From an uncultured Chloroflexia bacterium (GTDB lineage: Bacteria > Chloroflexota > Limnocylindria > Limnocylindrales > CSP1-4), in NCBI GenBank assembly GCA_963788685.1, contig CAWBHP010000013.1, positions 167,012-231,011 of the forward strand: a stretch of DNA of 64,000 nucleotides. Reading direction: 5' to 3'. A program made the position numbers and the translations under genes. Positions 5,366-30,797 of the stretch are shown piece by piece. A model generated the notes under the pieces. That model had not been told where the DNA came from. It made no database searches and saw nothing but the letters and a program-made list of their open reading frames with translations. The stretch's first letter is position 1, and every line of letters starts with the position of its first letter.

Positions 5366-7221
5366 ATGACCGCGACCTCGAGCCGACCTTTCGCCCGCCG
5401 CTCCCTGCCGGCCACGATCGCCGGACTCCTCCTCGCCGCGGCGCTCGCCCCCGCCGCGACCTCCGCGGCGGCGATCCCCACGTTCGTCCCGATCGGGGCG
5501 GGCTATGCGGCCGACACGCTTGAGCAATTCGCCGCGGAGGCGGCGGCCATCGACGCGTCGGGAGAGGTGTCGATCCTCGTCCTGCCGATCACGTACGGCG
5601 TCGACCCGCTGTCGATGTCGAACGGCCTTCGGAACAAGAACTTGACCTTGGCCGACGGGCGTCGCGGCCAGATCGAGGATGCGTGCCTTGCGGTCATTCC
5701 CGCCGGCGAGACCTGCGACGTGGTGCTCGCACCGGTCCTTGTTCGGGACGACGCGTTCGACTCCGGCGAACGTCGGATCTCGTCACGCCGGGCCTGGACG
5801 GGATCTACGTCCTCGGTGGCGACCAGGTCGTCGCGATGCAGGTCGTCGCCAACACGCCGTTCGAGGACGCCCTCGCGGCCGCCCAGGCGGCGGGCGCCGT
5901 GACCAGCGGGAACAGCGCGGGTGCGGCGGTCGAGTCGGCCGACATGATCGCCGGCTACACCGGGGCGAACGGACCCGAGCAGGGATTCGAGCAGGGCGCC
6001 GTGGACCTGTGGCTCTATGGCGGCCCGACGGACGACACCCGCGGCCTCGTCTTTGGGCTCCAGAACGTCCTCCTCGACCAGCACGTCCTCCAGCGCGGCC
6101 GGATCGCCCGGCTCATCGCGACTGCCCACCTGGCCGGCACGGTCGGGATCGGGCTCGATGCCGACACGGCTGCCACGATCAAGAACGGGAGCACTGTCAC
6201 CGAGATCGGCGGGCTGTCGGCGGCATTCGTCGCGGACTCGCTGACGTTCCCGGCGTTTGCCCAGTACGACAGCTCCGGGACGCTCTCGATCCGCCGCGAG
6301 GCGACCCACGTTCTGGCACCCGGCGACGGCTACGACATCCCGTTGCGGCAACCGATTCCCGCGGGTTCGGCCGGGTCACTCCCGGCGCCGGACCTGACCG
6401 GACGCTCGTTCCCGAACCTCCTGCCCCCGCCGAACGCCGGCCCGCTCCTGCTGGCGGGCGGCTCGCCGTCGGGCGCGGTCCTCGATCGATTCGTCGTGGA
6501 TTCCGGCGGGTCCGGCAGCTCGATCGTCGTCCTTGCGGCCGGCTACGCCAAGCCGGAGGTCGCGACGAAGGACGCCAAGGCGTTCGCGGCTGCATTCTCG
6601 GCTCGTGGTGCGTCGGCGAGCTGGTTCCTCGTCAACGCGAAGACGAACGAGGCCCAGGTCGTGGCCGCCTTGAACGCTGCCGACGGCATCTTCCTGACGG
6701 CCCCGGATCCGTCGACAGTGCTGGGCTCGCTCGCGGCGAAGCCCCAGGTCACCGCCCAGATCGTCGGCCTCTGGGGCAACGGCCGGGCGCTGCTCGCGAA
6801 CGACGCGGCCGCGTCGGCGATCAGCGAGAACTTCACCACCGATCCGCGGCCGGCGGCCACGACGGGAGCGATCGAAGCCGCGGCGATCGCCGAGTTCCGG
6901 CCCGACAGCACGACCGTCGTCGAGGGCCTCGGCTGGATCAACGTCGCCGTCGAACCGGGCATCGTCTCGAATCGCCACTGGGGCCGGCTCTACAACATCG
7001 TCGCGGAGCCGTTCCCCGCGGAGGGGATCGCGATCGGGATCGATGCCGGCACCGCGGTCGAGTTCCGCCCGGAATGGTCCGCACCGCAGGTCGTCGGCGA
7101 CAGCGTCGCCGTCCTCCTCGACGGGCGGTACGCGTCGTTCGGCGTCGGGTCGAACGGTGCGCTGTCGGCGCACTGGGTGATCCTGGACACGTTAGTCGGC
7201 GGCGAGGAGGTCGCGCCCTAG
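5366..7221 (+). CDS. secreted protein with two tandem cyanophycinase-like (peptidase S51) domains; one frameshift at about 5785
   Basis: A signal peptide is followed by GDQV...SGNSAGAAVESADMIAG...LLDQHVLQRGRIARL...GIGLDADTA. A second S51-like repeat runs from about 6430 to 7200 (GIAIGIDAGTAVEF). Confidence 0.6.
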
Positions 7222-7430
7222 CCGCTGCTGTGTGCGCCCGCCGCGCCGTTACGCGACGCGTACCGACGGGCGGGCGAGGCCGGCGCCAAGCCCGCTTCAA
7301 GGCCCTCCAGCCGCCAACAGTTACGCGAGGCGTGCCATTTGGCGGTAAGAAGGGGTTCGACCGGCCTTGCGCGGTCGGCTGGCGGTCCCTTGGTACGGGA
7401 GGCGTAACGCAGACGCGAGTCGCGGGGCGT

Positions 7431-8510
7431 CAGCCGCCGCGTGGCCCACGGTTCTGGACGAACTGGAAGCCGAAGCGGCCCTTGATGCAGAGGTGGCCGT
7501 CGGTCACCGACGAATCGAGCGGCGAATCGACCTTCACGATCGTGTTGTCCTGGACGTGGAGATTGAGCGCGCAGCCGACGCCGCAATACGGGCAGATCGT
7601 CTCGGTCACCGTCTGGGCGCTCTCGTCCCAGGTCCCGGCGGCGCGCATGTCGAACTCGGACTTGAACATCAACGCGCCCGTCGGGCAGACGCCGATGCAG
7701 TTGCCGCAGTAGACGCACGCCGAATCGGGCAGCGGGACCGCCTCCTCCGTGGAGATGCGGGCGTCGAAGCCGCGCCCAGCGACGGCGATCGCGAACGTGT
7801 TCTGGGCGTCCTCGCCGCAGGCCTCGACGCACTTGTAGCAGAGGATGCACTTCGAGTAGTCGCGGACGTACAGGTTGTTGTCGACCATGACCGGCTGAGC
7901 GACGGTCTGGGCCTGCTGGGCGTCGGCGCCGGTCGGGGCGTGGTGGTGGCCCGGCTCGTGGGCGTCGCGTTCGCCGGCCTCGGCGGGCGGCGCCGATGGT
8001 CCGTAGCGAGCGGTGTCGGCGCCGTAGCGCTCGATGTAGCCGCGCGGCCGACGGCGCGGTCGAGAGATCGACCGACGAGCCGAGGAACTCGAGGACCATC
8101 TTCCGGCTGTGGCGGACCCGCTCCGAGTCCGTCGAGACGTCCATCCCGGCCTCGACCTTGCGCGAGCAGGCCGGGACGAGGACGCGCGAACCCGTGACCT
8201 CGACGACACAGACGCGGCAGACGTTGACCGGGGTCAGGTTGTCGAGATAGCAGAGGGTCGGCGTGTCGATCCCCTGGGCCCGACATGCGTCGAGGATCGT
8301 GGAGCCGACCGGCACCGAGACCGCGGCGCCGTCGATCGTGATCTCGACCTCGGGGCGGGGTGGGGCCGGTGGCGGGGCCGGCGGACGGCTCGGGCGGGCT
8401 GCCGGCTTGAGGATGATCTCGGTGAGCGGCTGGGCGCCCGGGGCCTCGTGTTCGTGCGGCGAACGCCGATCGGGGGCGGGATCGCGATCCATGCTCAGCC
8501 CGTCGCTCAC
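7431..8510 (-). CDS. fdsA: NAD-type formate dehydrogenase alpha subunit, N-terminal fragment only (2Fe-2S, two 4Fe-4S domains, and the CPYCGVGC cluster motif); frameshift at about 8050; ends [16 protein letters not shown]
   Basis: Motifs include [64 protein letters not shown] and [24 protein letters not shown]. No molybdopterin domain follows. Confidence 0.75.
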
Positions 8511-9658
8511 AGCGCCACCAATTCCGGCTGGCGCATCGCGCTCTCGATCGCCGATGACGCCGTCTGGCCCAGGCCGCAGATGCTCGCATCGCGCATCGCC
8601 TGGCCGATCTCGGCGAGGAGCGCGAGCTCGTCCGTCGCGGCTGCCGAGCGGGCGCCGCGGCGGCGAGCCGGGCGAGGAGCTCCTCCTGGCGGACCGTGCC
8701 GACCCGGCACGGGACGCACTGGCCGCATGACTCGTCGCGGAAGAACTGGGCGATCCGGCGGAGCGTGTCGACCATGTCGGCGGTCTCGTCGAAGGCCATG
8801 ACGACGCCGGAGCCGAGGGTCGCCCCGATCGCGCGCGTCGCCTCGAACGTGAGCGGCGTGTCGAGCGCGTCCGGGCCGACGAAAACGCCCGCCGCGCCGC
8901 CGAGGAGGACGGCCTTCAGGTTTCGGCCGCCAGGGACGCCGCCTGCCAGCTCCAGCAGCTCGCGAAGGGTCGCCCCGAATTCGACCTCGTAGACGCCCGG
9001 GTCTCGCGACGTGGCCGCTGACGCAGAAGAGCTTCGGGCCGGTCGAGCCCTCCGTGCCGATCGCCCGGAAGGCGTCGGGGCCGCCGTTGTCGGCGAGGAT
9101 GAGGAGGACGTTGACGAGCGTCTCGACGTTGTTGACGGCCGTCGGCTTGCCGAACAGGCCGACTTCGACGGGGAACGGCGGCTTGTTGCGCGGCTCGCCG
9201 CGCTTGCCCTCGATCGACTCGAAGAGCGCCGTCTCCTCGCCGCAGATGTAGGCGCCGGCGCCGCGCCGCAGCTCGATGTCGAGGTCGCCGAGGAGACCAG
9301 CGTCCTTGCTCGCGGCGATCGCGTTCGCGATCCGCGCCTCGGCGAGCGGGTACTCGCCGCGGATGTAGAGGTACGCCTTGTCGGCGCCGACCGCGAATGC
9401 CTCGATCGCCATCGCCTCGACGACCGCGAACGGATCGTGCTCCATCAGGACGCGGTCCTTGAACGTTCCCGGCTCCGACTCGTCCGCGTTGCAGACGAGG
9501 TAGTGCGGCTCAGCGGCCTGCGCGGCGACCGCCGCCCACTTGCGGCCGGTCGGGAACGCCGCGCCGCCGCGCCCGACGAGGCCCGAAGCCGTCACCTCCT
9601 CGATGACGGCCTGGGCCCCGATCTGTGCGGGCTCGCTCGAGGGCCCGAAAGCCGCCAC
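8507..9658 (-). CDS. fdsB: formate dehydrogenase beta subunit (NuoF-like, NAD/FMN-binding); at least three frameshifts
   Basis: Motifs include [44 protein letters not shown] and FCVSGHV. In other frames are [13 protein letters not shown] and [10 protein letters not shown]. Confidence 0.7.
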
Positions 9659-12856: not shown

Positions 12857-13004
12857 CGGCACGGGTGTGCCTCCTGCGGAACGACGACATACAGAGTCTA
12901 ACGCGAGGGCTGTCGTGCCTGGTGCGCCATCGCGGCGTTGCCACCTGCGCGGTTTCGAAGGGCCTAGACTCCCGATCTGCACCGAAAGCGATGGGAGGGT
13001 TCGC

Positions 13005-13428
13005 GTGGATACACCTCAGAAGCGACGCTGGATCGGGCTGATCGTCATCGTCATCGTCGCCGGCGTCGCCGCGGCCTGCGCGGGCGCACAGCGCAAGCCC
13101 CTCGGCCTCGGCCGCAGCGGTGAGCCCCGCGGCCCCATCCGCGGCGACCGGCTCGGACGTCGCTCGCACGCTCGACGGGCCGGCCGAGGCCAAGGCCGGA
13201 TCGGCGATCGTCGTGACGTGGACCGGCGAGGTCCGGAACGGCGACTACGTGACCATCGTGCCAAGCGGCGGTTCGTACAAGGCAGATGACCCGTACGTGA
13301 ACATCTACGACACCACGTCCGCCACGCTCAAGGCACCTGCGGCGGCAGGGGAGTACGAGATCTGGTGGATCGAGGGCGACACGATCGACGTAGTCCTGGC
13401 TCGTCATCCGATAACGATCACGCCATAG
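13005..13428 (+). CDS. small putative lipoprotein or secreted protein; frameshift at about 13085
   Basis: A GTG start gives VDTPQKRRWIGLIVIVIVAGVAAACAG (lipobox-like), then ...SDVARTLDGPAEAKAGSAIVVTWTGEVRNGDYVTIVPSGG... follows in the +1 frame. Confidence 0.4.
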
Positions 13429-13561: not shown

Positions 13562-14500
13562 TCACATCGCCGAAACGCGCCTCGGGCTGATGATCCGCGC
13601 CACAGCGGCTACGGCATCGTCGAGGGTCTCGGGCAACCGAGTGGCTCCGATCGCATCGGATATGTCATCGGCCAACGGACCGCCGACGGCGCAGATCAGC
13701 GGCCTGGATGTTGTCCGAAGGGCCTCGGCGACGACCGCAGCCTCGGCGACGTCGGAGTCTGTGACGACCGCCACGACCGCCACGGGTGCGCCGGTCTCGC
13801 GGACGGTACGCAGCCAGCTGTCGAGCGGCACGTTGGCGCCCAGGTAGAGCACGTCGAGCCCGATGCGCCTGGCGGCGACCGCGAAGGCAAAGGCGCCGAT
13901 CTCATGTTGACCCGCCGGCGGCAGCCCGACGATCACCTTCGGGATCCGATCACTGCGCCCGGCAGCGTCGAAGAATCGCGCGAGCCTGCGCCGGACCGTT
14001 TCGCTGGCGGCGTGCTCGACGGCGACGTCGATCTCGCCAGCCGACCACGCGTCGCCGATGCCTCGCAGCGCCGGGAACACGATGTCGTCCATCGCGGACT
14101 CGAAGCGCTGGGCGGCGAAAGACTCGTCGAGGATCTGCTCCATGGCCGGCACATCGAACTGATGGGCCGCCACGAGGAACGCATCGACCGCGAGCTCAGC
14201 CGATCGCGACGACGCGCCGCGATCGTCCGAGACCGGAGCCGCGCCCGGCGCGACATCCCACCCACCCACGGCAGCGTCTGCCCCCACCGCGAGCACGTGC
14301 TCGGCGGCCTGGCTCGGGCGCCAGCCCTCGTTCTCCACAAGACGGCGCATCGCCATCAGCCGTCCAATGGATTCGTCGTCGTACAGGCGATAGCCAGCCG
14401 CGGTCCGGCTCGGCCGAACGACCCCGTAGCGACGCTCCCAGACGCGAACCGTTGGGATGGTGAGGCCGGCTCGTGCGGCCGCTTCCTTGATCGTGTACAT
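13562..14500 (-). CDS. CarH/LitR-type light-responsive MerR-family regulator with a B12 (AdoCbl)-binding domain
   Basis: The MerR helix-turn-helix is MYTIKEAAARAGLTIPTVRVWERRYGVV. The Wx9EH motif is AWSAGEIDVAVEH. The Rossmann-like B12 domain has GQHEIG...SWL...VGGP. Confidence 0.8.
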   Translation of the reverse strand: MYTIKEAAARAGLTIPTVRVWERRYGVVRPSRTAAGYRLYDDESIGRLMAMRRLVENEGWRPSQAAEHVLAVGADAAVGGWDVAPGAAPVSDDRGASSRSAELAVDAFLVAAHQFDVPAMEQILDESFAAQRFESAMDDIVFPALRGIGDAWSAGEIDVAVEHAASETVRRRLARFFDAAGRSDRIPKVIVGLPPAGQHEIGAFAFAVAARRIGLDVLYLGANVPLDSWLRTVRETGAPVAVVAVVTDSDVAEAAVVAEALRTTSRPLICAVGGPLADDISDAIGATRLPETLDDAVAAVARIISPRRVSAM

Positions 14501-14557: not shown

Positions 14558-15388
14558 TCACGGTCGCAGCGTCCCGGCGAACACCTGCCATGCAAGCAGC
14601 GTCTTCGCGATGAGGCTGAGCACCATGTACGCCCGTTCACCGAAGACGTAGTCGCGCCATCGTCCGATTCGGCGGTACTGGAGGACCATGTTGATCGCGA
14701 AGACATTGAATGAGATGAACAGCGAGATGTAGATCGCGATCACAAAGCCCGGAATGGGGGCCGCGCCTGGCGCGGTGATCCCGGTCACCAGCGCGACCCC
14801 GATGACGATCCACGGCACGGCGCCGGCGACGCAGCCGAACACGTAGTGGAGCCACTGGACCCGTTGTCGTCCCTCATTCGCGATCTCCATGCTCCATCCG
14901 AACAGGATCATCACCGCATTCACGCCGAAGATCGCAATGAGCGTCCCGATCTCGCGGATGCCGGTCAGGCTGGCGATGACCACGATCATGACGCTCGACG
15001 AGAACGCGTACTCGATCCACCGCGCCGGATTCTGACCGCGCGCCAGGTTTCGTTCGTACCAGGCGCGGAACGGGACCGCGACCGAGAGATGGGCGAGGGC
15101 GCTAAGCAGAAAGAAGAGCGCGACCGCCGGTCCGATCGGCAGGTCGAAGAGCGGCTGCTGGGCCTCGATGAGAGTCCGAGTTGAGGGCTCGAACCTCAGA
15201 TAGCTGCTGACGACTGGGGAGCTGACGACCGGATCCTTCGCAACGCTCAGCGCCAGCATTGCCAGGAACTGGGTGCCGTGCAGGGCCGCGAGCGCCAGGT
15301 TCCATCGGGACAGGAGCGCGCCACGCCCGCTGTCGATCGGGACTGGCAGGGGGATAGGCGCCGTGATCGCGGACATCGGTATCTCCAT
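14558..15388 (-). CDS. heliorhodopsin
   Basis: RWIEYAFSSSVMIVVIASLTGI..IAIFGVNAVMILFGW and GERAYMVLSLIAKTLLAWQVFAGTLRP are near-identical to heliorhodopsin 48C12 motifs, including the retinal-binding lysine in SLIAK. Confidence 0.88.
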   Translation of the reverse strand: MEIPMSAITAPIPLPVPIDSGRGALLSRWNLALAALHGTQFLAMLALSVAKDPVVSSPVVSSYLRFEPSTRTLIEAQQPLFDLPIGPAVALFFLLSALAHLSVAVPFRAWYERNLARGQNPARWIEYAFSSSVMIVVIASLTGIREIGTLIAIFGVNAVMILFGWSMEIANEGRQRVQWLHYVFGCVAGAVPWIVIGVALVTGITAPGAAPIPGFVIAIYISLFISFNVFAINMVLQYRRIGRWRDYVFGERAYMVLSLIAKTLLAWQVFAGTLRP

Positions 15389-15409
15389 GGGCCGATTGCG
15401 AGATTCGTC

Positions 15410-15463
15410 TGTTCATGGTTTGTCGAATATATCACGGGCCAAAGATTTGACAAACCATGAACA
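15410..15463. promoter_or_regulatory. perfect 15-bp inverted repeat (TGTTCATGGTTTGTC, 24-nt spacer, GACAAACCATGAACA) in the AT-rich divergent promoter; candidate operator
   Basis: The repeat is read directly from the sequence. It lies between the heliorhodopsin start and the DUF4397 gene start. Confidence 0.5.
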
Positions 15464-15558
15464 TCGCTGCTACCTTAGGCCAACCCTCATCAAAGGGTGA
15501 ACAACAACAGGCGTCGAGGCAACAGTCCGGACGCCTCAATCCAGAAGGAGCCAGCACC

Positions 15559-16431
15559 GTGAACCGTCTTCTCGTTCGAGTCACCCGCGTCGTCGCCGGC
15601 GCCGCGTTGGTGCTCACCATCGCCGCCCCGGTGAGTGCGGCAGACACGGCACAGGTCCGTGTCCTGCATGCCTCGCCCGACGCACCGGCCGTCGACGTCT
15701 ATCTCGACGACACAATCGTCGACGCCCTGACGAACGTCCCGTTCGGGACCAGTTCGGACTACCTCGCGATCCCCGCCGGGGACCACAACGTGAAGGTCTA
15801 CGCCACCGGCACGACGAGCGCGCCCGTCATTGACGCGGACGTCACCGTCGCGACCGGCAAGAAGTACACGATCGCCGCCACCAACGCGGTTGCCGCGATC
15901 GAGGCCCAAGTGCTCGAGGACACCCCGGCGCCGGACTGCGATACCGCCCAGGTGCGGGTCGTCCACTTCAGTGCCGACGCTCCCGCGATCGACGTCGCCC
16001 CGGCCGGCGCCGCGCCCGCCGATGCGGTCGTCAAGAACCTCGCCTACCCGAACGCGTCTGACTACCTGGCACTGCCGGGTGGCACGTACGACCTCGAGGT
16101 TCGGCTGGCCGGAACGACGACGGTCGCGCTGGCCCTGCCGGGCGTCGCGATCGAGGACTGCAACGCCTACAGCGTGTTCGCGATCGGCTCCGCGGCCGGG
16201 ACCCCGGTCGGCGGAAAGGCCCTCCAGGTCGTCGCGGCCCTCGACGGCGCGGCCGAGGCCGGGCCGAAGCCGGGGCGGGGCGACCCCGCCCGCGACCGAC
16301 ACCGCCGTTTCGGGCTCAGGCCCGTCGGCGCTCAGTGCCGGTTCCGTGATCGGGTTCGTCGTCGTGGCCGTCGCCGCCATCGGCACCGTCCTTGCCCTCT
16401 CGTTCCGGCGCGCCGGGCACCGAGGGCCTAG
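15559..16431 (+). CDS. DUF4397 repeat protein with a signal peptide and a C-terminal transmembrane anchor; frameshift at about 16280, end uncertain
   Basis: The GTG start is preceded by GAAGGAG. The repeats are VRVLHASPDAPAVDVYLDD.. and VRVVHFSADAPAIDV. The anchor VIGFVVVAVAAIGTVLALSF is in the +1 frame. Confidence 0.55.
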   Translation: MNRLLVRVTRVVAGAALVLTIAAPVSAADTAQVRVLHASPDAPAVDVYLDDTIVDALTNVPFGTSSDYLAIPAGDHNVKVYATGTTSAPVIDADVTVATGKKYTIAATNAVAAIEAQVLEDTPAPDCDTAQVRVVHFSADAPAIDVAPAGAAPADAVVKNLAYPNASDYLALPGGTYDLEVRLAGTTTVALALPGVAIEDCNAYSVFAIGSAAGTPVGGKALQVVAALDGAAEAGPKPGRGDPARDRHRRFGLRPVGAQCRFRDRVRRRGRRRHRHRPCPLVPARRAPRA

Positions 16432-16643
16432 GGGACTCCCGTACTCGACCTTCCCAGCGCGAGCCGGTCGCCCCTCCGGCCGGCTCTCGCCTCCTCGGGA
16501 AGGCGACGGGTCTGGCGGTCGAGCGACCTCGCACGCTCGTCGACGAGCTGCTCGAGCTGGCGGTCGTCCCCAGCTTCTCCCGGATCGGGCCGGCCGTCCG
16601 CCGGCGGCTGTTCGGTTGGGCGGCCCGCCGCCCGAGGCTGCGC

Positions 16644-17536
16644 ATGCCGGGCGGACCGTCCTGATCACCGGGCCGACGTCCGGGCTGGGCCGCGCGGCCG
16701 CCGGCGGCTCGCCGGGCTCGGCGCGCGGGTCGTCCTCGTCGGCCGCGAGCGAGGCCGGTTGGCCGCGGTCCGCGACGAGCTCGTCGCGGCCACGGCGAGG
16801 ACCGCTTCCCGATCGTCGTGGCCGACATGGCGTCGCTCGCCTCGGTCCGGGCGGCCGTGACGCGGATCCTGGACGACCGAGCCGCGGCTCGACGTGGTCA
16901 TCGACAACGCGGGCGCGATCCTCCCGAAGCGAACCGAGGGACCCGACGGGATCGAAGCGACGTTCGCGACGATGGTCGTCGGCCCGTTCGTCCTGGTCTC
17001 CGGCCTGCTGCCGCTGCTCCGTCGGAGCGGCGGCGCCCGGGTCATCGCGGTGACATCGGGCGGGCAGTACGCCCAGCGGCTCGACCTCGACGACTTGCAG
17101 CTCGCCGGCGGGCCGTTCGACGGGACGCGTGCGTACGCCAGGTCGAAGCGCGCCCAGGTCGGCCTCGTCCGTGAGTGGGCTCGGCGGCTCGGGAGGTCCG
17201 GAGTCACGCTTCGCATCGATGCATCCCGGTTGGGCCGACACGCCCGGACTCGCGGAGGCCCTGCCGGCCTTCCACGACCTCATGCGTCCGCTGCTCCGAA
17301 CGCCCGACCAGGGCGTAGACACGCTCGTCTGGCTCGCCGCCTCAACCACGAGCCACGGGGCGAATGGCCGCCTGTACCTCGATCGTCGGCCGCGCCCGTT
17401 CGACCGAGTCCCTGCCACGCGGCTCTCCGCGACTGATCGGCGGCGCCTCTGGGACAGCGTCGTCGCCCTCAGCGGGGCGCCCGACCCGGCCCCCGACCCG
17501 GACCTCATCCCAACCAGTGACCGGAGATCGACATGA
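16644..17536 (+). CDS. short-chain dehydrogenase/reductase (SDR) family oxidoreductase; about four frameshifts; possible N-terminal extension
   Basis: Motifs include TVLITGPTSGLGRAAA, VIDNAGAILP, YARSKRAQV and MHPGWADTPGL. The stop overlaps the next ATG (ATGA). Confidence 0.6.
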
Positions 17537-17994
17537 CCACGCTCACGAACGGATCGAGACACCCTGCCCATCGACGAGGCGTTCGCCTACGTCGCCGACT
17601 TCGCCAACTCCCAGGAGTGGGACCCGGGCGTCGCCACCGCCGAACGGCTCGACCAGGGCCCGGTCGGCGTCGGGTGCGCGCTACCGGCTCGGCGTCCGGA
17701 TGGGCGGCCGGGTCGCCCCGATGGAGTACCGGATCCCGGTCTTCGAGCCGCCGACGCGGGTCGTCCTGCCGGTGCCGGGTCCGGCGTGACGGCGGTCGAC
17801 GACATCCGCTTCGAGCGCCCGGCGACGCGGGACGCGCGTCGACTACACCGCCGACATCAAGCTCGGCGGCCTCCTCGGCCTCGTCCAGCCGTTCCTCGGC
17901 GGCGCCTTCGCGCAAGCTCGGCCGGAACGCGGCCGACGGCATGCAGCGGACGCTGCGACGGCGCGCGCGGCCGGCGACCGAGGCGGACGCGTCG
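17533..17994 (+). CDS. SRPBCC (polyketide cyclase/dehydrase-like) family protein; several frameshifts
   Basis: Motifs include ETLPIDEAFAYVADFANSQEWDPGVATAERL, RYRLGVRMGGRVAPMEYRIPVFEPPTRVVL and DIKLGGLLGLVQPFLGGAF. Confidence 0.5.
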
Positions 17995-19274
17995 ATGAAG
18001 GTCGCCATCGTCGGGGCCGGCGTCAGCGGCCTGACCGCCGCGTACGCGCTGACGCGAGCCACGAGATCCGCCTGTTCGACGCGGAGCCGTCGTCGGGCGG
18101 CCACGTCAAGACGGTCGCGGTGGAGACGGCGCCGGGCCGGTCGCGGTCGACACGGGCTTCATCGTCTACAACGAGCACACCTACCCGACGTTCATCCGGC
18201 TGCTCGCCGAGCTCGGCGTCGCGACCCAGCCGAGCGACATGTCGCTCGGGTCGGCCTGCCGGGCCTGCGGCGTCGAGTTCAGCTCGCGCGGCATCGGCGG
18301 CTACTTCGCCCAGCCGACGCGCCGTCGCTCGCCCGGGCCAGTGGCGGATGATCGCCGACATCCTGCGGTTCTACCGCGAGGCCCGAGCGACGCTCGACGC
18401 ACCGGCGCCCTCGACCGGGACGCTGGGCGACTTCCTCGACGACGGCGGCTATCGGCGCGGGCTTCCGCGACCACTTCCTCGTCCCGATCACGTCCGCCGT
18501 GTGGTCGACGGGCGCGGCCCGGATCCTCGACTTCCCGATCGACTACCTGCTCCGGTTCCTGGACCACCACGGCCTCATCGGCTACGGCAACGCGCCTCCA
18601 GTGGCGGACGATCCAGGGCGGCTCGATGCGCTACGTGGACCGGATCGTCGCAGCGCCTGCCGCCTGGCACGATCCGAGCCGGCAGCCCGGTCGTCGACGT
18701 CGTCGCGCCGCGTGGCGGGCGTCACGGTCCGGACCGAGGACGGCACGCCGGAGCGCGTTCGACGCGGTGGTCATGGCCACGCATGCCGACCAGGCCCTGG
18801 CCGTCCTCCACGACGCCGACGGCTGCGAACATGCCGCGCTGGGCGGCTTCGACTACTCGACCAACCAGGTCGTCCTCCACACGGACGAGCGCGTCCTGCC
18901 ACGCCGACTCGGCGCGCCGCGCGTCGTGGAACGTGGACCAGGAGGATTGCCGCGCGGCCGGGCGAGGCGCTCACGATGACGTACCACATGAACCGGCTGC
19001 AGTCGCTGGCCGGCCCGATCGCAGTACTCCGTGTCGGTCAACCCCGGCGACCGCGTCCGACCCGACCGGGTCATCGTGGAGCGAGCCATGAGCCATCCGA
19101 TGTACACGTTCCGGACGCTCGAGGCGCAGGCGGCCCTGCGCGGCCTGCAGGGCTGGCGTCGGCACGTAGTTCGCCGGGGCGCACCTCGGCTACGGCTTCC
19201 ACGAGGACGGCTGCCGGTCCGGGTTGGAGGTCGCCGACCTCGATCCGGCCGCGGCCGCGGAGCGAGCCGCATGA
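17995..19274 (+). CDS. FAD/NAD(P)-binding amine-oxidase-like oxidoreductase (UfaD-like desaturase); many frameshifts
   Basis: Motifs include [77 protein letters not shown] and [14 protein letters not shown]. Confidence 0.6.
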
Positions 19275-20020
19275 GGTCGCACCTGCTGGAGGGCATCGTC
19301 CGCCACCGGCGCGTCCGGCCGTTCACGTACGCGCTGGAGCACGGCGTGTTCTACGTCGCGCTCGACCTCGACGAGCTCGACGAGGTGCCGCGGCGGCTTC
19401 GGTTCGTCAGCCGGAACCGCCGGAACCTGCTGTCGTTCCGCGACGACGATCACCTGGTCCCGCCGGCCGCGCGACGTGCGCGCGTCGGTCCTGCGAACAG
19501 CTGCGGGCCGAGGGCGTGGATCCCGACGGCTGGCAGGTCACGCTGGTCACGAACCTCCGGTGCCTCGGCTACGTGTTCAACCCGGCCAGCTTCTTCCTCT
19601 GCCGCGATCGCGCCGGCGAGCTGCGGGTCGTCATCGTCGAGGTCCACAACACGCACGGCGAGCGGCACCTGTACACGCTCCGCGCGCGGACGACGGCGGC
19701 CGGCGGCTTCGTCGACTCGATGGACAAGGCGTTCTACGTCTCGCCGTTCATCGAGATGGCCGGGCGCTACACGGTCCGGGTCCGCGACGAGCCGGCCGCG
19801 TCTGCGGATCACGATCAACGAAGCCCAGGACGGACGGCCTCCTGCTGCACACGAGCCTCGACCTGACCCGCCGACGCCTGTCCGACCGGATGGTCGCTGC
19901 GGATGCTCCTGCGCCACCCGCTGGTCAGCCACAGGACGATCGGGCATGATCCACTGGCACGCCCTGCGGCTGTGGCTGCGCGGGGCCCGATTCCACCGCC
20001 ATGGGGAGGCGACACGATGA
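19271..20020 (+). CDS. DUF1365 family protein (UfaO-like); several frameshifts
   Basis: Motifs include [78 protein letters not shown] and [12 protein letters not shown]. Confidence 0.6.
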
Positions 20021-21283
20021 CCACGCCGACGACGTCCAGCCGCTCGCGCCGCGCGCTCGGCCGATCCCGATCCTGCTCGCCGGCTCGCGCTGGCGCATCG
20101 CGACCGGCGGCGGCGGACGCGATCGCGGTCGGGCACCTCGCGGTCGTCCTGCCGGACGGCAGCCGCCGGACGTTCGGCGATCGCGGCCGCCGACCGGCCG
20201 CGCCGAGATCCACATCCACGACACGCGAGCGCTGACCCGGCTCCTGTCGACGGCGAGACCGGTGGCGGCGAGGCCTACATGGACGGCCTGTGGTCCAGCC
20301 CGGACCTCGCCGGCCTCCTGCGCTGGGCCGCCCTCAACCGCGAGGCGCTGGCGCTGTCGGCCGGCTGGTTCCGGGCGCCGGCCCAGCTCCGGCGGACGAT
20401 CGCCCACCGCGCTCCGACGGAACACGAAGGGCCAGAGCCGCCGGAACATCGCGGCCCACTACGACCTCGGGCAACGACTTCTACCGGCCGTTCCTCGACG
20501 AGACGATGACCTACTCGAGCGCGGTGTTCGCCTCGCCCGACCAGTCGCTCGCGGACGCCCAGCGCAACAAGTACCGGCGCATGGCCGACGGCGCCGGCCT
20601 GCGTCGCCGGCCAGCACGTCCTCGAGATCGGGACCGGCTGGGGCGGGTTCGCCCTCTACGCGGCGGGCGAGCTCGGCTGCCGCGTGACGTCGGTCACGAT
20701 CTCGCAGGAGCAGCACGCCCTGGCCCGCGAGCGGGTCCGCGCGGCCGGGCTGGAGCGACCGGGTCGACATCCAGCTGCGCGACTACCGCGACATCGACGG
20801 GCACGTACGACGCGATCGTCTCGATCGAGATGCTCGAGGCGGTCGGCGCCGAGTACTTCGCGACGTTCTTCGAGGTCTGCGATCGCGGCGCTCGTGCCGG
20901 GCGGCCGGCTGAGCCTCCAGTCATCACGTTCCCCGATGCCGCCTACGAGCGCCAGCTCCGCGGCGCGAACTGGATCCAGACGTACATCTTCCCGGGCGGC
21001 CTGTGCCCGTCGCTGGCCGTCATCGAGCGGGCGACCGCGCGACACGCGGCTGCTCGTCACGCGACGTCACCGACATCGCCGCCGGACTACGTCCGGACGC
21101 TGCGTGCGTGGCGGACGCGGTTCATGGAGCCGGCTCGGCGACGGTGCGCGCGATGGGCTTCGACGACCGCTTCATCCGGATGTGGGAGTACTACCTCGCG
21201 CTGAGCGAGGCGGGCTTCGCGACCGGGATCAGCCAGGACCTCCAGATCGTGCTTCGAGAAGCGCCGCGGCAATCGCTGGTTAG
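20017..21283 (+). CDS. cyclopropane-fatty-acyl-phospholipid synthase family SAM-dependent methyltransferase (UfaM-like); many frameshifts; 3' end approximate
   Basis: Motifs include [108 protein letters not shown] and [22 protein letters not shown]. Confidence 0.65.
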
Positions 21284-21339
21284 TTCCAGCATCGGTCGCC
21301 GGCGAGCCTTCTCGGCGGACTCTGGCGGCCTTCGCCCCC

Positions 21340-29968: not shown

Positions 29969-30757
29969 TCAGGCCGCGCGGCGGGCCAGGATGTTGAGGC
30001 GGACGTAGTCGATCCGGGCCTCGGGCAGGGCAGATGCGACGGCGTGCACGAACGCGTCCCGCTCGGACTCCGGGAGGCGTGCCACGTGCGACCCGAGAAC
30101 GACGGTCCGCAGGTACGCCTCGAACGGGGCGCCCGGCTCGAAGGACGTTGGCTCCTCGGTCAGCCAGCACTCGACATCGACGAAGCCTGCGGCTGCCAAC
30201 CGCTCGGATGTCGCGGCCGGCGTCTCGAAGTGCGAGTCGCCGAGCCAGCCGTCGCCGGTCACGGCCAGCACCCGCCGGACGGACGCGACGTTGCCGACGC
30301 CGCCGCACTGCGCGACGAGGCGTCCGCCCGGCCGGACAACCGCGGCGAGGTTCCGGAAGAGCGCGTCGTGGTCGGGGACCCAGTGGAACGTCGCGGTCGA
30401 GAGGATCGCGTCGACCGGCTCGGCCAGGGGCAGCGACTGCCCGAGATCGGCGACCACGTACTCGACCCGTTCGCCGAAGCGGGCGAGTCGGGTGCGAGCC
30501 TGCTCGATCATCGCCGGCGAGCCGTCCAGCGCGACGACGGAGCCGCGCGGGAGGCGCTCGACGAGAAGCTCGGTGACCCGGCCGCTGCCGCAGCCGGCAT
30601 CGAGGACTCGCTCGTCGCCGCGAAGCGGCAGCCGATCGAGGACCGCGGCGCCCCAGCGCGTCATCGGATCGGCGACCTTGTCGTACGTCGCGGCGTCCCA
30701 GTCACGCGGTGCCGTCACCGGCTCAGAGGCCTCCCCGAATCGAAACGCTCCCGGCAC
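29969..30757 (-). CDS. class I SAM-dependent methyltransferase (trans-aconitate methyltransferase-like)
   Basis: The motif is VLDAGCGSGRVTELL. The gene is intact. Confidence 0.6.
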   Translation of the reverse strand: MPGAFRFGEASEPVTAPRDWDAATYDKVADPMTRWGAAVLDRLPLRGDERVLDAGCGSGRVTELLVERLPRGSVVALDGSPAMIEQARTRLARFGERVEYVVADLGQSLPLAEPVDAILSTATFHWVPDHDALFRNLAAVVRPGGRLVAQCGGVGNVASVRRVLAVTGDGWLGDSHFETPAATSERLAAAGFVDVECWLTEEPTSFEPGAPFEAYLRTVVLGSHVARLPESERDAFVHAVASALPEARIDYVRLNILARRAA

Positions 30758-30797
30758 TCGGGCGCCGGGAGCGTTTCGGAATCTTCCGATTGAACCG

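Follow-up and report, generated by a model that had tools for sequence, protein, structure and literature searches.

The 64,000-nucleotide stretch of DNA analysed here (hereafter the window; contig CAWBHP010000013.1 of an uncultured Chloroflexia bacterium) carries at positions 15410–15463 an inverted repeat that an earlier note on this DNA had put forward as an operator, placed between the start of a heliorhodopsin (HeR) gene and a divergent DUF4397 gene. The neighbours identified with Pfam agree with this placement. HeR lies at 14558..15388 on the minus strand (PF18761, E 7e-93), and 57 nt downstream of it follows a carH/litR-like gene (13562..14500, minus strand), recognised by Pfam and by its relatives, among them CarH of Thermus thermophilus (TtCarH), which encodes a MerR DNA-binding domain and a B12-binding module. 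The gene for the secreted DUF4397 protein (15559..16431, plus strand; PF14344, E 4.5e-44) is the first of the divergent unit. According to the analysis, the palindrome quite likely forms the central part of a CarH-type operator, through which CarH loaded with adenosylcobalamin (AdoCbl) represses both HeR-carH and the divergent DUF4397/ufa-like unit in the dark and is released by light.

The repeat is perfect, as had been claimed: the left arm TGTTCATGGTTTGTC (15410–15424) and the right arm GACAAACCATGAACA (15449–15463) are 15 nt long and separated by a 24-nt spacer. A repeat search extended the pairing to 19 nt at 95% complementarity (15410–15428 with 15445–15463, 16 nt in between). The AT-rich patch noticed earlier is likewise real, being the sole low-GC stretch of the neighbourhood, with a GC content of 0.46 at 15400–15499 compared with about 0.62–0.77 in the coding sequence on both sides and 0.84 farther downstream.

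When the 15-mer was searched for in the window with up to 3 mismatches, the two arms were the only matches (0.18 expected). The window holds 42 inverted repeats of at least 13 nt whose arms are no more than 60 nt apart. Only two of them are perfect 15-mers, and the sole AT-rich one is that at 15410–15463. The other (30741–30778; CGAAACGCTCCCGGC / GCCGGGAGCGTTTCG with a loop of 8 nt) is GC-rich and hairpin-like.

Operators of B12-dependent CarH/LitR proteins are tandem 11-bp direct repeats of the form 5′-nnnnTnnACAn-3′, with the core TnnACA (PMC9304148, PMC8156234). One of the repeats often includes TTGACA, some operators serve two divergent promoters, and dimeric CarH requires two tandem repeats (PMC9304148). 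Each arm of the palindrome corresponds to exactly two tandem 11-bp repeats with the CarH core. The palindrome results from two direct-repeat pairs that point at one another from either side of the HeR-carH −10 box. On this point the earlier note, which had stated that LitR-type regulators bind inverted repeats, needs correction: the characterised B12-dependent CarH/LitR proteins bind direct ones, and a search of the literature for B12-dependent LitR binding to inverted repeats found nothing relevant.

The core pattern of such a pair, TNNACANNNNNTNNACA, has 2 matches in the 64 kb, one in each arm (15410–15426 on the minus strand and 15447–15463 on the plus strand). The expected number is 0.12, and two matches were reached in 1 of 100 shuffles. 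Additionally, we built a position weight matrix from homologous sites and compared its scores with the maxima of shuffled sequence. The right-hand site (B) scored 27.9 bits and the left-hand site (A) 23.3, whereas the next best position in the window reached 10.7 and the shuffled maxima ranged from 8.5 to 16.8. Given the arm matches, the core-pattern counts, the inverted-repeat survey and the matrix scores, chance is an unlikely explanation of the repeat. Neither the 15-mer search nor the strict two-repeat pattern nor the matrix revealed further copies of the arms or half-sites in the window. This also answers the suggestion that a half-site might recur upstream of the ufa-like genes: no copy was found there, and those genes follow DUF4397 on the same strand.

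Site A, the tandem pair TCGACAAACCATGAACA (15410..15426, minus strand), includes the left arm. It opens with the final T of the HeR −10 box and takes in the predicted transcription start at about 15419–15420; its T, GAC, AAC, T and ACA are invariant among orthologues. Site B, the pair TTGACAAACCATGAACA at 15447..15463 on the plus strand, contains the right arm together with the overlapping −35 boxes of both divergent promoters, and its GTTTGTCAA and TGT..A are invariant.

A candidate third site, C (TCATCAAAGGGTGAACA, 15487..15503, plus strand), is a partial copy that combines a degenerate repeat (TCA) with a full one (TGAACA) and stands 40 nt away from site B. It would occupy about +5 to +21 of the predicted DUF4397 transcript, in its 5′ leader. 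Its offset is conserved, as full tandem pairs occupy the same position, 40–41 nt away, in the related loci L081, L083 and L084. Thus, the arms described earlier hold, but the extent given for the element was too short, since the candidate third site lies beyond it.

The ACA/TGT triplets are centred at 15411, 15422, 15451, 15462, 15491 and 15502, that is, in steps of 11/29/11/29/11 with a period of 40 bp. Measured between site centres, A and B are 37 bp apart and B and C 40 bp, and site A is inverted relative to the other two. The repeat pairs are separated by 20–23 nt, and the 11-mers flanking each pair lack TnnACA.

A consensus scan of 15300–15650 returned a single promoter (10/12 matches plus the TG of an extended −10, 0.2 expected). 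It lies on the minus strand at 15426..15453 and would serve HeR-carH: a −35 TTGTCA at 15453–15448, a 16-nt spacer and an extended −10 TGaTATATT with its hexamer at 15431–15426. Its −35 and the TA...T of its −10 are invariant across orthologues and conserved in a set of 63 carH loci described below. Transcription is predicted to start at about 15419–15420 on this strand.

For the DUF4397/ufa-like unit we read a putative promoter at 15447..15476 on the plus strand, with a −35 TTGACA (15447–15452), an 18-nt spacer and a −10 TACCTT (15471–15476). This −10 matches the consensus at 3/6 positions, too weak for the scan. The start predicted on the plus strand is near 15483. In orthologues it reads TACCTT, TACTTT or TAGATT in the same place, and a TAnnnT 18 nt from the −35 on the opposite strand was seen in those carH loci, 53/63, that allowed anchoring on TTGTCAA. 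Because the minus-strand TTGTCA and the plus-strand TTGACA overlap, site B appears to be common to two back-to-back promoters. In this, the element resembles CarH operators, which overlap promoter boxes: site B holds TTGTCA/TTGACA, and site A abuts the −10 TATATT, the starts themselves being predicted.

In classical MerR-family operators, a palindrome sits inside a −35/−10 spacer of 19–20 bp and the regulator activates transcription by distorting the DNA. The element shares with them the MerR-type DNA-binding fold of its presumed regulator. Here the spacers measure 16 and 18 nt and the arms lie outside the spacer, over the −35 and downstream of the −10. The inner half-sites, moreover, are separated by 29 bp, more than a MerR coiled-coil dimer could span, and the logic that we propose is repression rather than activation.

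Several other candidate features were tried at the locus and rejected. In 15300–15650 there is no terminator-like site (a GC-rich stem with a short loop and a T-run was sought). The sole Rfam match, mir-552 at 20 bits against a gathering score of 100, is a chance hit and does not indicate a known structured RNA or riboswitch. The consensus of the LexA/SOS box is GAAC-N4-GTTC; the GTTC and GAAC of the arms are about 44 nt apart and do not fit it. A leaderless open reading frame (ORF) from the ATG within site A (15416..15102, 104 aa) was judged spurious, being out of frame with HeR and lacking its ATG in loci L004 and L001.

The start codons of the two flanking genes could be placed with respect to the element. 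The first ATG of HeR (15388) has no ribosome-binding site, whereas that at 15376 is preceded by GGAG (15386–15383) and equals the start called in L167 (MPAITAPI...); the latter is probably the true start. An ATG in the DUF4397 frame (15457) falls inside the right arm, and the earlier note had preferred the GTG at 15559. This choice is borne out: the GTG is preceded by GAAGGAG (15544–15550), a signal peptide begins directly after it, orthologues align from residue 1, and the start in L167 is the equivalent GTG.

A scan of species-representative genomes with the HeR protein assigned the window to Chloroflexota, 'Ca. Limnocylindrales', and 80 HeR loci (0.8 Mb) were compared. The near-identical strain L004 has a HeR with 99.6% identity by BLAST (100% in a second listing), and the divergent DUF4397/HeR layout recurs in L001, L002, L003, L004, L048 and L167/L168. 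An alignment (A1) of 7 orthologous regions, the window and six loci, has invariant columns in site B and its −35 (TGT..A..GTTTGTCAA), in the −10 (TA...T) and in site A (GAC.AAC..T..ACA). Other positions of the arms vary among the 7 regions, as does the spacer. In L004, none of the 4 substitutions in the 54-bp element affects a core position, and its arms match at 14/15 positions. Since core and hexamers are invariant, other arm positions vary and the arms of L004 are already imperfect, selection acts on the repeat core and the promoter hexamers, and the perfection of the repeat in the window is incidental.

The strict two-repeat pattern occurs 9 times in the 80 HeR loci, in every case upstream of HeR in loci bearing carH or DUF4397. 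All 9 occurrences lie at the orthologous position or, in L052, beside a distant carH-like gene divergent from HeR. Among the 80 loci, HeR genes with neither carH nor DUF4397 as a neighbour have no site, the distant L052 excepted. The palindrome might have been a generic repeat unrelated to these genes, as the earlier note had allowed; the scan of the window and of the HeR loci led us to reject this.

Two of the orthologous loci depart from the common layout. In L002 (5930–7200), formate dehydrogenase genes come directly after HeR. Neither carH nor a small ORF (13000–13428 in the window) is present at the locus, and the outer repeat of site B has its ACA changed to ACG. In L048 (5565–5935), a GC-rich insertion of about 370 nt interrupts the HeR promoter, with site B on one side and the −10 box and site A on the other. 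In this locus, HeR and carH each align in two frames because of frameshifts, and this could be a decaying locus or an error of long-read assembly.

The element also occurs where HeR is absent. Homologues of the regulator that are 68–88% identical to it and lack a neighbouring HeR were found in L081–L086, mostly divergent from a DUF4397/SDR/cyclase/amine-oxidase/DUF1365/CMAS cluster (CMAS standing for cyclopropane-fatty-acid-synthase-like). The operator is the same in all six loci, and a full tandem pair occupies the position of site C in each. A metagenome scan with the regulator added further carH loci, giving a set of 63 distinct upstream regions with CarH identities of 43–100%.

Across these 63 regions, the order is constant (site C, site B with the −35, the −10, site A), usually without HeR, and the last T of the −10 is the first T of site A. 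At a threshold of at least 7/8 core matches, for which the background is 7.7e-5 per position, site A, the anchor, was counted in 62/63 carH loci. Site B was counted in 44/63, at −36 to −39 relative to A, and site C in 55/63, mostly at −31, −42 or −53 (±1) relative to B, which corresponds to 11-bp steps. In most of the 63 loci, the start codon and codons 2–3 of carH (ATG-TAC-A) form the second repeat of site A. Because the start codon would then lie inside the operator, the carH mRNA predicted for these loci must be leaderless or nearly so.

As this layout recurs upstream of 63 carH homologues, usually without HeR, the operator belongs by ancestry to carH and the DUF4397/ufa-like cluster, and HeR was placed behind it in the lineage of the window. 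The description of the element as a heliorhodopsin/carH operator is therefore upheld for carH and DUF4397, whereas the tie to HeR is not ancestral. In the window itself, the sequence between HeR and carH, directly upstream of the latter, holds no operator or operator remnant. That one operator serves both divergent units, as had been proposed, appears well founded on the invariant core and hexamers in 7 regions, the 63 carH loci and the specificity of the element.

HeR has joined the operator in several ways. In the subclade of the window, it was inserted between the operator and carH. In L091 (2726–3872) and L136, a DUF378-HeR operon is divergent from carH with the operator in between; this appears to be a second, independent placing of HeR under the operator. 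In L052, HeR is divergent from the distant carH-like gene. The DUF378-like protein of L091/L136 is a 77-aa membrane protein whose likeness to DUF378 was judged by eye.

Two other observations concern carH loci. In L084 (4828–4878), and also in L085, a short ORF (MEAPMFMLTAPIHAG*) stands between operator and carH and is similar to the initial codons of HeR (MEIPMSAITAPIPLP). Apparently it is an 11–15-codon remnant of the 5′ end of HeR, which would mean that HeR was lost there from a HeR-carH operon. In L058 (3534–3676), a distant carH-like gene (30% identity) is divergent from DUF4397, and the intergenic region has TGCAA/TGCAC motifs at 11-bp spacing in place of TnnACA; the encoded protein may be related to CarH but recognise a changed repeat.

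The genes near the operator are of the kind expected for CarH, which is linked to light-protective functions: DUF4397, SDR, cyclase, amine oxidase, DUF1365, CMAS and photolyase. In the window, SDR, FAD amine-oxidase, DUF1365 and CMAS (ufa-like) genes were recognised from Pfam fragments at about 16500..21300 on the plus strand and are likely the downstream part of the DUF4397 unit. The same gene set adjoins carH in L081, L083 and L084, and in L083 a DNA photolyase gene (6965–8527) lies directly 3′ of carH on the same strand. The divergent lipid-modifying cluster and this photolyase would fit a light-stress or photoprotective regulon. The SDR, amine-oxidase, DUF1365 and CMAS genes of the window and the C-terminus of DUF4397 are broken across frames, with Pfam domains split between overlapping ORFs. 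This suggests indel errors of a long-read metagenome-assembled genome (MAG) at 16500–21300 rather than true pseudogenes.

The regulator encoded at 13562–14500, a protein of 312 aa, carries a MerR winged-helix domain (PF13411, E 1.3e-14; PF00376, E 3.4e-10), and its best solved relatives are T. thermophilus CarH structures (5C8D/3WHP, E ~1e-30). Its residues 1–71 align to TtCarH's DNA-binding domain, with WERRYG of the recognition helix and RT..G.RLY of the wing conserved. In CarH, a Wx9EH motif in the four-helix bundle caps the adenosyl group; it defines AdoCbl-dependent CarH and is absent in the B12-independent CarA (PMC8156234). The regulator has this motif as W152-x9-E162-H163, aligned to that of TtCarH, and so do 120/120 of its closest homologues. 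The lower-ligand histidine (His199) is also kept, with its Gly and the later GG (GQHEIG ... AVGG). Judged by its MerR helix, its likeness to TtCarH, Wx9EH and the lower-ligand His, the protein looks competent as a CarH.

The anatomy, conservation and specificity of the element and its linkage to carH led us to the reading given at the outset, and CarH binding, AdoCbl and light dependence, start sites and stoichiometry can be proposed as follows. The CarH homologue from the same operon, loaded with AdoCbl, would oligomerise in the dark. The oligomers would occupy site B, with both −35 boxes, and site A, at the edge of the HeR-carH −10 and over its start, and probably also site C in the early transcribed part of DUF4397. 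RNA polymerase would thereby be blocked at both promoters, and CarH would repress its own synthesis. Light from UV to green would photolyse the cofactor, the oligomer would fall apart, and both units would be transcribed. As for the inverted pairs 37 bp apart, they could possibly be read either as part of three separately bound units or as bridged by means of a long linker.

Several observations weigh against this reading. The canonical B12-binding motif ExHxxG-x41-SxV/T-x22-27-GG is not present in full, as Gly stands in place of Glu and Ala in place of Ser (the Ser position comes from an alignment to TtCarH made by eye), and the PF02310 match reaches 28.9 bits, under the Pfam cut-off of 32.1. 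Because of this non-canonical motif and the weak domain match, the dependence of the regulator on AdoCbl, and on light, appears not assured. The geometry is a second concern. Each site has two repeats, A and B are inverted with their centres 37 bp apart, and this arrangement is outside the TtCarH-DNA structure. The conservation of site C could, alternatively or additionally, stem from a hairpin with a 5-bp stem in the 5′ untranslated region. Furthermore, L002 keeps the operator though carH is missing within 6 kb at the locus. Finally, in most of the 63 loci site A shares its outer repeat with coding sequence, that of the peptide MYTIKEAA by which the loci were found, which confounds the conservation of this repeat.

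With regard to that hairpin, the DUF4397 leader (15484–15536, plus strand) may fold into two small ones: ACCCT..AGGGT, which overlaps site C, and GGCGTC..GACGCC at 15511–15536. The former has 5 pairs, 2 of them with compensatory changes among 7 sequences. No Rfam match was found for the hairpins of the leader.

The deviations in the B12 module raise the possibility that the co-encoded protein does bind the element, as an autoregulatory operator, but acts as a B12- and light-independent repressor like CarA, or responds to another signal, so that there would be no direct light switch. The replacement of Glu/Asp by Gly and of the triad Ser by Ala extends through the clade (at the position two before the His, 79 of the 120 closest homologues have Gly and 37 Ser), and the PF02310 score points the same way. 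However, Wx9EH, which CarA lacks (PMC8156234), and the lower-ligand His are intact, and the content of the regulon (photolyase, ufa-like cluster, rhodopsin) is typical of a light response. We therefore regard a repressor of this kind as unlikely.

It is less probable still, indeed quite improbable, that some other, unlinked transcription factor uses the element as its operator, with CarH no more than co-located. Such a factor would account for L002, where the element persists with formate dehydrogenase genes behind HeR, and for the likeness of the arms beyond TnnACA, for example in the GACAAAC block, invariant save for one A-to-G change in L003. Nevertheless, DUF4397 in L002 still needs a promoter, and carH could sit elsewhere in DASTVH01, its fragmented MAG. 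The element lies directly upstream of carH, or holds its start codon, in dozens of loci that span 43–100% CarH identity, and it matches the experimentally defined CarH repeat (PMC9304148).

That there is no repressor site at all, the symmetry coming from back-to-back sigma-70-type promoters, an RNA or DNA hairpin, a terminator or the end of a repeat element, is very improbable: TTGACA/TTGTCA and the −10 boxes do explain part of the conservation, and the arms could pair as a hairpin (the Rfam match being only a spurious miRNA-like one), but the outer repeats, which are conserved too (TGT..A, upstream of the −35; GAC.AAC..T..ACA, downstream of the −10), do not belong to any promoter element, nothing resembles a terminator, neither predicted transcript holds both arms, and neither the 64 kb nor the 0.8 Mb of related loci contain other copies.

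The CarH-type operator that we favour can be compared with those already characterised. In the carH/crt promoter of T. thermophilus (PDB 5C8E; PMC8156234, PMC9304148), as in the window, there are 11-bp TnnACA repeats of which one embeds the −35. The regulator is similarly a MerR domain fused to an AdoCbl module with Wx9EH, and carH is autoregulated, as we propose for the window. The Thermus operator, however, consists of three contiguous co-oriented repeats, to which one tetramer binds with three of its four DNA-binding domains, whereas the window has three sites with 2+2(+2) repeats. Between its DNA-binding and B12 domains, the regulator of the window has a linker about 25 residues longer than that of TtCarH.

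Operators of Bacillus megaterium CarH contain four tandem repeats, or three and a pseudo-repeat (PMC9304148). They resemble the window in having tandem 11-bp repeats over the −35 or −10, and they tolerate degenerate "dr" repeats, which may be compared with site C. In B. megaterium, though, all repeats are contiguous and co-oriented, with no palindromic arrangement. Runs of three or four such repeats, as in Thermus and Bacillus, are absent here, each site having two.

Myxobacterial CarH/CarA operators come closer in some respects (PMC9304148). They are alike in size (about 55 bp at Pcrt of M. xanthus) and in having TTGACA within a repeat. CarH dimers of Cystobacter need two tandem repeats, like the two-repeat units of the window, and the operators of Sorangium and Haliangium serve divergent promoters, as we propose here. 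Operator design is plastic in this group, and the M. xanthus site can be read as inverted repeats too. The myxobacterial sites nonetheless have 4–5 contiguous repeats upstream of and over the −35, whereas the two-repeat units of the window bracket the −10 and the start. Additionally, most members of the clade, unlike myxobacteria, have the start codon of carH inside the operator and would have a (near-)leaderless mRNA.

Surveys of HeR list MerR-family/cobalamin-binding, photolyase, SDR and oxidative-stress or lipid genes among its neighbours, and both suggest a connection with oxidative stress and with lipid remodelling (Cho et al. 2024, PMC11109279; Chazan et al. 2021, bioRxiv 10.1101/2021.02.16.431466). 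A cis-element is described in neither, nor does either survey name the MerR neighbour as what regulates HeR. Our literature search found no paper that mentions heliorhodopsin together with CarH. Operators of CarH that overlap promoters are already known; what is unusual here is the architecture and the rhodopsin cargo. The two-repeat units are inverted around the −10, a third unit stands 40 bp off, and in the wider clade the start codon of the regulator lies within the operator.

A more far-reaching reading, which we hold to be rather doubtful, is that three evenly spaced two-repeat sites represent a binding mode of CarH unseen in Thermus, Bacillus and myxobacteria and that HeR is a genuine, repeatedly recruited member of a B12-photoreceptor regulon. 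An array of CarH oligomers could then form, or one oligomer with long linkers could bridge the sites spaced by about 40 bp and wrap both promoters. In the photoprotection of membranes, HeR may then act jointly with the co-regulated fatty-acid-modifying genes or even with CarH.

For heliorhodopsin, the locus supplies a concrete circuit that can be tested. If the CarH-type reading is true, light would act through one B12-photoreceptor operator to turn on HeR, the operator's own repressor and a ufa-like lipid-modifying cluster at once, which would place HeR in the photo-oxidative-stress response. A compact bidirectional operator of this kind could also serve in green-light optogenetic promoters. 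For the biology of CarH, it would add an operator design widespread in Chloroflexota, one that challenges the picture of a single tetramer on three to four contiguous repeats.

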